From assembly GCF_947623445.1 (NCBI RefSeq), contig NC_135248.1, positions 2,662,977 to 2,726,976 of the forward strand: a stretch of 64,000 nt of DNA, in the 5' to 3' direction. Within the stretch, counting starts at the first letter, position 1. Each line of letters opens with the position of its first letter. This document shows positions 48,259 through 49,736 of the stretch, piece after piece. The position numbers and the translations under genes are program-made. Origin of the DNA: Clavelina lepadiformis (lineage: Eukaryota). A model generated the notes under the pieces. It ran no database searches. It had not been told where the DNA came from and was given only the letters and a program-made list of their open reading frames with translations.

Positions 48259-48675
48259 TGTGACGATTACGTCACGAATCACGAGTTGTTTTTGACATGT
48301 TTGGAATTTAATTTGGGATATTGGAATTCATTTGTTTACCAGAGTTGAGTTTTCCTTAATGACGTCAGATAATTTCCTCGCTTGAACTAGCTTGCCACAT
48401 ATATATATACTGTTGTAATGTTTACGATCTTCCCTTTTCCCTTTTACCGTTTCACGTGTTACTGAGCGCGATGTAACATTCAGCAAGATTCGCCCGAAGG
48501 CAAAAGCCTTCGTGTCCTATAATAAACAAAATGAGACTTTATAATTTAGTAATGTACATAGACAGAATTTAAGAAGCAAACAGCATTATCAAACCGTTCA
48601 AGAAATGACAACCATCTCATCGAGTCAAAAGCAAAACAAGATTCAACCATCCTCGCTTTAAAATTTGTCATAAAT
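48259..48675. repeat. 5' terminal direct repeat (LTR-like). Contains the palindromes GTGACGATTACGTCAC and TGACGTCA, and a TATA-like atatatatac.
   Basis: About 98% identical to 49321-49687 over the first 367 bp. More diverged over the last ~50 bp. Confidence 0.6.
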
Positions 48676-49320
48676 TGGTGCCCTGATAAGTTCGAAATTG
48701 CTGAGTTAGTTGCACATTGAGCAAGAAAGACTGTTACCAGCTATTTATGAAGTTTTGATGATCAAGTTTCAACAGCAAGATCAGCCAACTACGAACGCTA
48801 GTCAACGAGGAAGTTTTCAGGACATTCCATCTCCAATATCAGCAACCAAACTAATTCGGAAACAACAGAACTAATGGCATTGATACCTGGTTGATGTGAT
48901 GAAGTTTTGATCGCCTAACCAACGTGTTATACATCTCCAAGAGCATGAGCAAACTATTGTATATACTTTTACGCATCAAGAAACAAAGTCCACTGGACAT
49001 CGCCACACGGCGCATCTCTCTACCGCAAACAAGGCTTGCTACAGCCGCGGAACGACACACGCAGACGTGATCGCTCATTTTTTTTTTACCTTCGACACGC
49101 AAGGAAAAGCGTCACTTCTGTAAGCTTATGTCTCATGTTTTGTATTTCAAGTGAAACGGTGTATCGATATTTGTTATATTTGCCGAACTCTGTCATTGTA
49201 CTGTACTAAATTCTTGTTTTAATGACCGTGACTAATCTCTTAATCAAAGACATAATTTTGTCGAGTAAAGGTTGCCTTCAATTTCATTTCGGGCAAGCTT
49301 TACTCTGGGTAGGAAGGCTA

Positions 49321-49736
49321 TGTGACGATTACGTCACGAATCACGAGTTGTTTTTGACATGTTTGGAATTTAATTTGGGATATTGGAATTCATTTGTTTA
49401 CCAGAGTTGAGTTTTCCTTAATGACGTCAGATAATTTCCTCGCTTGAACTAGCTTGCCACATATATATATACTGTTGTAATGTTTACGATCTTCCCTTTT
49501 CCCTTTTACCGTTTCACGTGTTACTGAGCGCGATGTAACATTCAGCAAGATTCGCCCGAAGGCAAAAGCCTTCGTGTCCTATAATAAACAAAATGAGACT
49601 TTATAATTTAGTAATGTACATAGACAGAATTTAAGAAGCAAACAGCATTATCAAACCGTTCAAGAAATGACAACCATCTCATCGAGTGAGCAGAAAAACA
49701 AGATATCAATTCAACCATCATCGATTTCTTTGTCAT
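49321..49736. repeat. 3' terminal direct repeat (LTR-like).
   Basis: See 48259-48675. ORF-track entries 48127-48348 and 49222-49410 share the identical tail ...DDYVTNHELFLTCLEFNLGYWNSFVYQS because they read through this repeat. Confidence 0.6.

Follow-up and report, generated by a model that had tools for sequence, protein, structure and literature searches.

Positions 48259-49736 of the window (the whole stretch of Clavelina lepadiformis DNA that was analysed, 64 kb in length) form a 1,478-bp unit in which two terminal repeats in the same orientation enclose a 650-bp non-coding core. We take this unit to be one copy of a recently inserted, non-autonomous TRIM-like LTR retrotransposon, with a probability of about 0.8. 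The two-repeat unit itself, first pointed out in a preliminary description made from the sequence alone, is confirmed, and its architecture, its lack of coding capacity and its presence/absence polymorphism with a target-site duplication (TSD) are matters of observation. The signals for transcription, the tRNA used as primer and the partner that would have served it belong to a model of its life cycle. Apart from one feature of its LTRs, discussed below, the element is an ordinary further case of a known type, the TRIM-type LTR retrotransposon.

The preliminary description had given two direct repeats of ~417 bp, beginning with TG and ending with CA, around a core of ~645 bp. The repeats are real and measure 412 bp (5') and about 416 bp (3'), with an LTR-to-LTR spacing of 1,062 bp; both start with TG and both contain the terminal ...TTTGTCA. 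The core is likewise real, although its measured length is 650 bp (48671-49320). The comparison that carries most of the argument was made with a second individual, assembly GCA_961645235.1, whose 22-kb sequence at this locus is labelled L001. The features of the element are as follows.

48254-48258, no strand: left TSD ACACC, recognised from the single ACACC in the empty allele
48259-48670, plus strand: 5' LTR, 412 bp, TGTGACG... to ...TTTGTCA, from repeat comparison; the segment that L001 lacks begins at its first base
48259-48625, plus strand: identical block of the 5' LTR, 367 bp, 100% identical to 49321-49687 in pairwise comparison; putative U3, R and proximal U5
48260-48275, no strand: inverted-repeat motif GTGACG-ATTA-CGTCAC (GTGACGATTACGTCAC) at the 5' extremity of the LTR, from sequence reading; 3' LTR copy at 49322-49337
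48360-48367, no strand: palindromic CRE-like octamer TGACGTCA, from motif location; 3' LTR copy at 49422-49429
48400-48409, plus strand: TATA-like (TA)5 run, a candidate promoter element by its position; 3' LTR copy at 49462-49471
48492-48515, plus strand: hairpin (CGAAGGC AAAA GCCTTCG, stem of 7 bp) lying shortly before AATAAA, from folding
48521-48526, plus strand: AATAAA hexamer resembling a polyadenylation signal, a putative function; 3' LTR copy at 49583-49588
48626-48670, plus strand: diverged 3' tail of the 5' LTR (tail A), probably distal U5, from alignment to 49688-49736
48671-49320, plus strand: internal domain, 650 bp, no coding capacity in ORF, Pfam, protein and Rfam searches
48676-48686, plus strand: PBS-like site TGGTGCCCTGA, 5 nt (TAAAT) after the 5' LTR, from sequence reading and comparison with tRNA 3' ends
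49307-49317, plus strand: GGGTAGGAAGG, with 10/11 purines, resembling a polypurine tract and separated from the 3' LTR by CTA, from sequence reading
49321-49736, plus strand: 3' LTR, 415-416 bp, TGTGACG... to ...TTTGTCA(T), from repeat comparison; the segment that L001 lacks ends at its last base
49688-49736, plus strand: diverged 3' tail of the 3' LTR (tail B), from alignment to 48626-48670
49737-49741, no strand: right TSD ACACC, from sequence reading and junction alignment

The empty site in a second individual

The two C. lepadiformis assemblies come from two individuals (PMC10950049). To the left of the element, L001:5904-7145 is collinear with window 47030-48255 at 97.9% identity, and to the right L001:7142-21451 is collinear with window 49737-64000 at 98.5% identity; the L001 alignment holds no counterpart of window 48256-49736. 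Junction alignment together with direct reading places the gap more exactly: L001 lacks precisely 48259-49736 and has one ACACC there, against an ACACC on each side in the window. The empty allele reads GGCCTACACACC joined directly to AATACTCG, with a single ACACC, and the edges of the presence/absence polymorphism match the outer ends of both direct repeats to the base. Because it is exactly absent from the second individual, the element is real and was recently inserted, and its insertion polymorphism means that it was recently mobile. The earlier claim of a non-autonomous LTR-type mobile element thus finds its support in an empty site that the outer repeat ends bound to the base.

The preliminary description had read a 6-bp TSD from the flanks cacacc and tacacc. 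The duplication is borne out by the empty site, but its perfect length is 5 bp, not 6. The flanks CACACC (48253-48258) and TACACC (49736-49741) have the 5-mer ACACC as their perfect common part, and on the 6-bp reading CACACC at 48253-48258 agrees with the right copy at 5/6 positions. A perfect 5-bp TSD leaves the 3' LTR ending in CAT, with one extra T between its CA and the TSD, whereas CA termini go with a 6-bp TSD that contains one mismatch. Just upstream of the TSD there are also 2 bp at which the left flank of the window and the empty allele disagree. This 2-bp difference and the CAT end are details that count against the reading as a TRIM-like insertion.

Two direct repeats at the spacing given above could also be left when host intergenic DNA that was never mobile is simply duplicated on the spot, in tandem or segmentally, and elsewhere the window does have a true tandem segmental duplication, at 3-6.5 kb and 9.7-12.8 kb. 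For the present unit, however, such an origin is hardly credible: the other individual is without the core and either repeat, and not just without one unit, and the outer repeat ends and the duplicated ACACC mark the limits of what it lacks. The two repeats are, moreover, preceded by unrelated sequences. The preliminary description had already argued against a tandem duplication from unlike 5' flanks; that argument holds, and the empty site contradicts a duplication as well.

The age of the insertion can be judged from the LTRs. Over 367 identical LTR bases there are 0 differences, where about 5.5-7.7 would be expected at the age of the 1.5-2.1% haplotype divergence (P = 0.0004-0.004). The insertion is recent, younger than the split of the two sampled haplotypes. 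A search for a third haplotype gave no exact match in the protein collection to flank ORFs of either the filled or the empty allele.

Architecture and relation to known elements

The preliminary description had the core begin with a tRNA PBS-like sequence and end with a polypurine tract (PPT) abutting the 3' repeat. Both sites are present and both are slightly displaced: the PBS-like site does not start at the first base of the core but 5 nt after the repeat, and the PPT does not strictly abut the 3' repeat because GGGTAGGAAGG, which is short and has one interrupting T, ends 3 nt before it. In a comparison with human, not Clavelina, tRNA 3' ends, the best agreement of TGGTGCCCTGA is 9 contiguous nt, with elongator Met; with tRNA-His and tRNA-Glu it agrees at 10 of its first 12 nt. 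Past about 11 nt the PBS-like sequence is unlike a tRNA T-arm, a point against the TRIM reading. ARAGORN found no tRNA genes in the 64-kb window, and a literature search with the PBS string or its complement returned unrelated PCR primers only. The chance of a TGG within 8 nt of a random point in the window is 11% and that of a PPT-like tract this near is 2.6%; for both to stand in canonical position and orientation the joint chance is about 0.3%. Self-priming of the Tf1 type was considered and rejected, as complementarity of the PBS region to the LTR extends over 7 nt at most.

The absence of gag and pol ORFs, also claimed earlier, is upheld: the longest stop-to-stop frame in the element is 86 aa, and in Pfam no element frame matches a family above the curated cutoff. 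The six-frame ORFs of the element, concatenated (1,107 aa), have no homologue among 5.8 billion proteins, and exact look-ups of element and junction ORFs gave no match in the protein collection. At the gathering threshold Rfam reported no family in the whole window, and for 48000-50000 at E<=10 its sole output was two chance snoRNA matches, with no hammerhead or other ribozyme. The Rfam and ARAGORN negatives thus rule out for the element a TRIM derived from a small RNA, a retrozyme and a Pol III gene. The last of these had come into question through a T10 run at 49078-49087, which has no Rfam or ARAGORN match and around which folding is unremarkable (z = -1.06 and -0.74). A MITE or DNA transposon was ruled out in turn, the repeat search having returned no terminal inverted pair; when the first 30 nt are compared with the reverse complement of the last 30, at most 11/30 agree at any shift. 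Neither end of the element has a poly(A) or simple-repeat tail. Searches of JGI metagenomes with two LTR patterns, and of prokaryote genomes with one, gave no match in collections where ascidian DNA is not expected.

A further alternative is some other mobile or templated DNA with terminal direct repeats, for example a partial tandem (1.4-mer) retrocopy produced when target-primed reverse transcription jumps templates, as in Penelope-like pseudo-LTRs, or an insertion templated at the DNA level by a donor locus in tandem arrangement. The non-identical last 45-49 nt of the repeats, described below, would be easier to understand if the repeats came from different templates; the identity of the PBS is putative, and a single copy was seen in the window and L001. 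We nevertheless consider this alternative highly improbable. It sits poorly with the TG...CA termini, with a 5-bp TSD of the integrase type and with PPT-like and TGG sites in canonical positions at the low joint chance given above, and equally with two element ends that have neither a poly(A) or simple-repeat tail nor terminal inverted repeats and with the absence of a hammerhead or other ribozyme like that of Penelope-like pseudo-LTRs.

The preferred reading, a non-autonomous LTR retrotransposon, leaves the class to be named. The TRIM and LARD classes of such elements are reportedly those of Witte et al. in 2001 and Wicker et al. in 2007, and the size rule of the latter authors is said to put TRIMs at <4 kb and LARDs at >4 kb. 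LARDs are non-autonomous LTR elements of >4 kb whose internal domain is long, conserved and non-coding, while classical plant TRIMs have 100-250-bp LTRs and a total of under about 1 kb. The present element fits TRIM in the broad sense of Wicker et al., having LTRs, PBS-like and PPT-like sites and no gag or pol within <4 kb; classical TRIMs are smaller, and the element is intermediate in size. The earlier description had offered TRIM or LARD, of which TRIM stands and LARD is excluded by the total length of 1,478 bp.

Animal TRIMs share this architecture, with PBS lengths of 8-18 nt and TSDs of 4-5 bp (PMC4558846, PMC3532108, PMC10886601). Like our element, PbTRIM from the harvester ant (PMC3532108) and ta-TRIM from taeniid cestodes (PMC4558846) have two TG..CA LTRs, a non-coding core and a short TSD; their PBS directly follows the 5' LTR and their PPT directly precedes the 3' LTR, places taken here by the PBS-like and PPT-like sites. 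The likeness is one of architecture. Both of those elements use tRNA-Leu as primer (PMC3532108, PMC4558846). PbTRIM is 480-781 bp long with 152-184-bp LTRs (PMC3532108), whereas the element described here is larger, at 1,478 bp with LTRs of about 415 bp, and its TSD is 5 bp against mostly 4 bp in PbTRIM and ta-TRIM. Near-identical LTRs of PbTRIM and ta-TRIM have been read as recent activity, and their insertions lie near genes (PMC3532108, PMC4558846); for ta-TRIM, orthologous empty sites served as evidence (PMC4558846). Copy number, solo LTRs, expression and a partner ('lennie' in the case of ta-TRIM) have been established for these two families (PMC3532108, PMC4558846). No further copy or solo LTR of our element occurs in the 64-kb window or the 22-kb L001 locus, and because a single copy was seen in these two regions we infer, and do not observe, that it belongs to a multi-copy family.

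The TRIMp3 elements (Cassandra, Helenus, Ajax; PMC10886601) and the plant retrozymes (PMC7761336) have the overall TRIM architecture in common with our element, and the animal and fungal relatives of TRIMp3 are primed by the 3' ends of a range of tRNAs, His and Glu among them, and make 4- or 5-bp TSDs (PMC10886601). In contrast to TRIMp3, whose LTR holds a Pol III promoter derived from tRNA or 5S rRNA, our element contains no such promoter according to ARAGORN and Rfam, and in contrast to retrozymes, which carry a hammerhead ribozyme in their repeats, it has no hammerhead match at E<=10. Its LTRs instead carry Pol II-type motifs (CRE-like, TATA-like and AATAAA).

Several of these motifs had been singled out in the preliminary description, and the CRE-like palindromes and the TATA-like run, that is GTGACGATTACGTCAC, TGACGTCA and (TA)5, do recur in both LTRs. 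On them that description based its conjecture that the LTR could be a mobile promoter. The octamer TGACGTCA is enriched over the whole window, with 9 found against 0.7 expected, and is therefore not special to the LTR. The hairpin upstream of AATAAA folds at -12.4 kcal/mol (z = -2.86), a value equalled by 2/200 shuffles. Judging from the positions of these motifs, the U3/R boundary may lie about 30 nt downstream of the (TA)5 run, and the R/U5 boundary probably falls about 15-30 nt downstream of AATAAA.

Divergence of the LTR tails

Canonical reverse transcription leads to the expectation of identical LTRs in a young copy. The LTRs of this element are identical at 367/367 positions, but over their last 45-49 nt they differ by 7 substitutions and by indels of 6 nt and 3 nt, a substitution divergence of about 15%. 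That all 9 events should fall in the tails and none in the first 367 bp has a probability of about 3e-9 under uniform scatter. The alignment of tail A with tail B scored above all 2000 shuffles, which indicates that homology continues through the tails. The divergence is a deviation from expectation and not from the structural definition of a TRIM; this mosaic pattern is the sole unusual feature of the element, and it is not what standard reverse transcription predicts. So sharp a change toward the LTR ends does not figure in the preliminary description. A tail formed as a tandem copy of the preceding about 40 nt was discarded, support for it being marginal (27/2000 shuffles for tail B and 322/2000 for tail A).

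The contrast between tails about 15% substituted, with two indels, and an identical remainder is what might be seen in an old resident LTR element in which LTR-LTR gene conversion had homogenised 367 bp, the empty allele then being a precise deletion via the 5-bp TSDs. Gene conversion of one LTR by the other in the same element is documented, as is the rare precise removal of transposable elements via short flanking repeats. This history requires two rare events, however, and a deletion at 5-bp microhomology that exactly restores the pre-insertion sequence is uncommon, whereas an insertion polymorphism accounts for the same data in one step. We therefore regard an old resident element as very unlikely. 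Even then the element would stay a TRIM-like LTR retrotransposon, and its age and polarity alone would change.

For a recent insertion, one conceivable though unlikely source of the tail difference is reverse transcription in a particle that held RNAs of two subfamilies, of which the tails would be a fossil. Minus-strand strong-stop DNA would have been made on one RNA and moved to the other, and the intact 5' R-U5 of the second RNA would also have been copied; the resulting U5 heteroduplex in the 5' LTR would have been resolved after integration. Within the diverged tails there are conserved blocks, AAAACAAGAT, ATTCAACCATC and TTTGTCATA, and constrained subfamily variants fit these blocks better than decay does. 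If this scheme were true, the copy would record an inter-template strand transfer that took place in a tunicate in the wild, and it would imply that two or more TRIM subfamilies were active together.

Proposed life cycle and genomic setting

We propose that Pol II would begin transcription at a point in the 5' LTR beyond its CRE-like and TATA-like motifs and that the transcript would be polyadenylated past the AATAAA of the 3' LTR. The element RNA would be packaged and reverse-transcribed in trans by the Gag/Pol of a putative autonomous LTR element. Priming would use a tRNA 3' end at TGGTGCC... together with the polypurine tract; the primer tRNA would end in ...TCAGGGCACCA, pairing with TGGTGCCCTGATAAG. 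The integrase of the partner would then join the cDNA at a 5-bp staggered cut, ACACC.

What has been found is a structurally intact, insertion-polymorphic non-autonomous LTR retrotransposon in a colonial ascidian with two reference-quality assemblies. The element offers a concrete marker that LTR retrotransposons are still active in a tunicate, and its recent mobility implies an active autonomous partner. It is intergenic, about 1.5 kb from a minus-strand Sushi/VWA gene and about 2.9 kb from a plus-strand METTL25-like gene, and a polymorphic element near genes is unsurprising for the biology of transposable elements. It brings CRE-like, TATA-like and poly(A) signals with it and could change how the Sushi/VWA or the METTL25-like gene is expressed; solo LTRs of ta-TRIM alter the expression of neighbouring genes in Echinococcus (PMC4558846). 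The METTL25-like gene has the same orientation as the element, and its ORF is 100% identical to XP_076824615.1, which identifies the host as C. lepadiformis. A marine-metagenome contig, L002, spans the METTL25 exon only. The divergent intergenic region between the two genes is roughly 5.9 kb in the window and about 5.1 kb in the empty allele of L001.

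An empty insertion site in a second individual

A 320-aa ORF at 52.5 kb of the window is 100% identical to C. lepadiformis methyltransferase-like protein 25 (XP_076824615.1, encoded on a 15.7-Mb chromosome), which identifies the window as nuclear DNA of an ascidian, presumably belonging to the kaClaLepa1 assembly. A near-identical METTL25-like protein, CAK8683030.1, is encoded in the second assembly, GCA_961645235.1, which according to the genome paper derived from a different individual (PMC10950049). The CAK8683030.1 locus of that assembly with 10-kb flanks (L001) was compared with the window by BLASTN. 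Two collinear blocks were obtained, L001:5904-7145 matching window 47030-48255 at 97.9% identity and L001:7142-21451 matching window 49737-64000 at 98.5% identity, and L001 contained no BLASTN counterpart of window 48256-49736. The entire repeat-core-repeat unit is present in one individual and absent from the other, and the edges of the polymorphism are the outer ends of both repeats. The 5-mer ACACC occurs once in the empty allele and twice around the insertion, one copy per side (slashes mark the junctions):

L001, empty allele: ...GTATAGGCCTACACACC/AATACTCGAG...
Window, left side: ...GGCCTATACACACC/TGTGACG...
Window, right side: ...TTTGTCAT/ACACC/AATACTCGAG...

A local tandem duplication is excluded because its alternative allele would retain one repeat, and L001 has neither; unequal recombination between the LTRs is likewise excluded since a solo LTR would remain in L001. 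The empty site with its single ACACC supports the core claim of the preliminary description, in which the unit is a mobile element of the non-autonomous LTR type as opposed to a tandem duplication. The target-site duplication (TSD) can be read in two ways: strict TG...CA termini give a 6-bp TSD with one mismatch (CACACC/TACACC), and a perfect 5-bp TSD leaves the 3′ LTR ending in CAT. Immediately upstream of the TSD the left flank differs from the empty allele by 2 bp, which we read as ordinary allelic variation.

Anatomy and classification of the element

The two direct repeats of the preliminary description were borne out, as was every one of its small motifs. The repeats share the same orientation and a block that is identical at every base over 367 bp (48259-48625 and 49321-49687), and their upstream flanks are unrelated to each other. 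Beyond this block the homology extends, far more diverged, into tails (48626-48670, 45 nt, and 49688-49736) that differ by seven substitutions and two indels, of 6 nt and 3 nt. None of 2000 shuffles aligned as well, and both tails end in TTTGTCATA. The repeats measure 412 and ~416 bp because the homology runs on through these tails.

48259-48670: 5′ LTR, 412 bp
48360: CRE-like octamer in the LTR
48400: (TA)5 in the LTR
48492-48515: stable hairpin in the LTR (z = -2.86)
48521: AATAAA in the LTR
48671-49320: core, 650 bp
48676-48686: TGG-initiated site TGGTGCCCTGA, 5 nt past the 5′ LTR
49307-49317: purine tract GGGTAGGAAGG (10/11 purines), ending 3 nt ahead of the 3′ LTR
49321-49736: 3′ LTR, ~416 bp

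The order of the LTR motifs, from the octamer through (TA)5 and the hairpin to AATAAA, fits a U3 of ~180 nt, an R of ~100 nt and a U5 of ~120 nt, with boundaries that are predicted. A similar purine tract lies equally close to 2.6% of random points in the window, and a TGG lies within 8 nt of 11%, which together gives ~0.3% if the two are independent; it is unlikely that both are correctly placed and oriented by chance. TGGTGCCCTGA is a candidate primer-binding site (PBS). Set against human tRNA 3′ ends, which give no more than a lead for Clavelina, it matches elongator tRNA-Met over 9 contiguous nt, and tRNA-His and tRNA-Glu at 10 of the first 12 positions each. Past ~11 nt the site has no likeness to a T-arm complement, and complementarity for Tf1-like self-priming is absent. 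PBS lengths down to 8 nt have been reported for animal TRIMs (PMC4558846), and tRNA-His and tRNA-Glu serve as primers for TRIMs of bivalves and vertebrates (PMC10886601).

The longest stop-to-stop frame in the element is 86 aa, none of its frames attains the cutoff against Pfam, and all frames joined into one concatenate gave no homologue in a search of 5.8 billion proteins. The element lacks terminal inverted repeats, and neither an Rfam family nor a tRNA, 5S or hammerhead was detectable in it. In architecture it matches the TRIM-type non-autonomous LTR retrotransposons. TRIM-type elements occur in plants. In animals they have been described in ants (PbTRIM; PMC3532108), taeniid cestodes (ta-TRIM; PMC4558846), and bivalves, vertebrates and nemerteans (Helenus and Ajax; PMC10886601). 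The Clavelina element is larger than classical TRIMs, at 1.48 kb with ~415-bp LTRs, whereas PbTRIM measures 480-781 bp with LTRs of 152-184 bp (PMC3532108), and its TSD is 5 bp in contrast to mostly 4 bp. A LARD, the other class first considered, is ruled out by size (>4 kb), and TRIMp3 elements and retrozymes are ruled out because the small-RNA and ribozyme modules are absent. The LTRs of ta-TRIM drive lncRNAs and fusion transcripts of adjacent genes (PMC4558846), and by analogy the earlier suggestion that the LTR could act as a mobile promoter is reasonable. No second copy was found within the 64-kb window or the 22-kb L001 locus, and, as expected, metagenome and prokaryote collections yielded no match in pattern scans.

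Recent insertion and the tail-restricted LTR difference

Haplotype divergence near the site is ~1.5-2.1%, so that an element as old as the haplotype split should show ~5.5-7.7 differences in the 367-bp block; none was observed (P = 0.0004-0.004). This absence of differences, in agreement with the presence/absence polymorphism, indicates that the insertion is recent. What makes the element notable is this recent mobility in a tunicate together with an unusual LTR difference limited to the tails. Canonical reverse transcription copies both LTRs from one set of U3, R and U5 templates, so that they should be identical at integration, and neutral decay would spread differences evenly. Here all nine LTR-LTR events are confined to the last 45-49 nt (~3e-9 under uniform scatter). 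Since the diverged tails share the conserved blocks AAAACAAGAT and ATTCAACCATC and the TTTGTCATA at their ends, they look less like products of decay than like two subfamily variants of the distal U5, each under constraint.

One candidate origin is gene conversion, after insertion, in which a paralogous copy replaced the tail of the 5′ LTR; the LTR on one side and the PBS/internal region on the other would supply the homology. Another is that reverse transcription took place in a particle where RNAs of two subfamilies were present. In that case strong-stop DNA templated by one RNA would be transferred to the second RNA, the intact 5′ R-U5 of this second RNA would be copied too, and the resulting U5 heteroduplex in the 5′ LTR would be resolved after integration. 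The least likely of the three is an old element whose first 367 bp were homogenized by LTR-LTR conversion and which was lost from the other haplotype by a precise TSD-mediated deletion, because two rare events would be needed.

Neighbouring genes and other features of the window

According to the deposited annotation of L001, the element is intergenic between two genes:

~46.7 kb, minus strand: 5′ end of a Sushi/VWA gene
~52.6 kb, plus strand: start of the METTL25-like gene

Cysteine-rich exon-like ORFs on the minus strand at 46217-47051 lie partly upstream of the annotated Sushi/VWA 5′ end (~46.7 kb). A Sushi domain is recognized in one of them (Pfam E = 1e-4), and two others, with no Pfam match, show Ly6/uPAR-like patterns by eye (LQCYECN..., ...CCCETDGCN). 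The deposited model may be 5′-incomplete, in which case the LTR element would lie nearer that gene's promoter.

A second insertion polymorphism lies 1.2 kb from the LTR element, where L001:5236-5903 carries ~660 bp that the window lacks at 47030-47038. This insertion resembles a hAT-type MITE, with terminal inverted repeats TAGGGCAACCAG / TTGGTTGCCCTA, an 8-bp TSD CTGATAAC and an interior of degenerate tandem motifs with TTTTGACCT and paired ATGACGTCAC / GTGACGTCAC sites. Another MITE may lie between the LTR element and the METTL25-like gene, as a 27-nt inverted repeat (51314-51340 / 51623-51649, AACGCTCTATAGCAGTGATTCCCAACC / GGTTGGGAACCACTGCTCTATAGGGTT) that is 85% complementary with 282 nt between its arms. 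Near the end of a TEP1-like gene and the Sushi/VWA gene are two smaller differences, ~77 bp extra in L001 (L001:1209-1286, window 43137-43138) and a replacement of 34 bp in the window (43531-43565) by 88 bp in L001 (1674-1762).

The palindromic CRE-like octamer TGACGTCA occurs nine times in the window (391, 8181, 19601, 20999, 32820, 41733, 44544, 48360 and 49422) against 0.7 expected from dinucleotide shuffles, none of 100 reaching nine. A 17-bp tandem at 370-403 contains it as well, as does the putative MITE of L001. The octamer is apparently favoured genome-wide, possibly in promoters or transposable elements, and not peculiar to the LTR.

In a tandem segmental duplication of ~3.5 kb (3061-6551 and 9682-12773; spacing 6.1-6.6 kb, 89-99% identity by segment) lie ORFs that encode Mucin2_WxxW domains (Pfam E = 3e-22 and 7e-14) together with tails rich in proline and glycine. 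A 1,410-bp marine-metagenome contig (L002; ENA ERZ909262, from ERR771006) matches window 52363-53768, the METTL25-like exon and its flanks, at 98% identity, which means that the metagenome assembly took in environmental or larval DNA of an ascidian.
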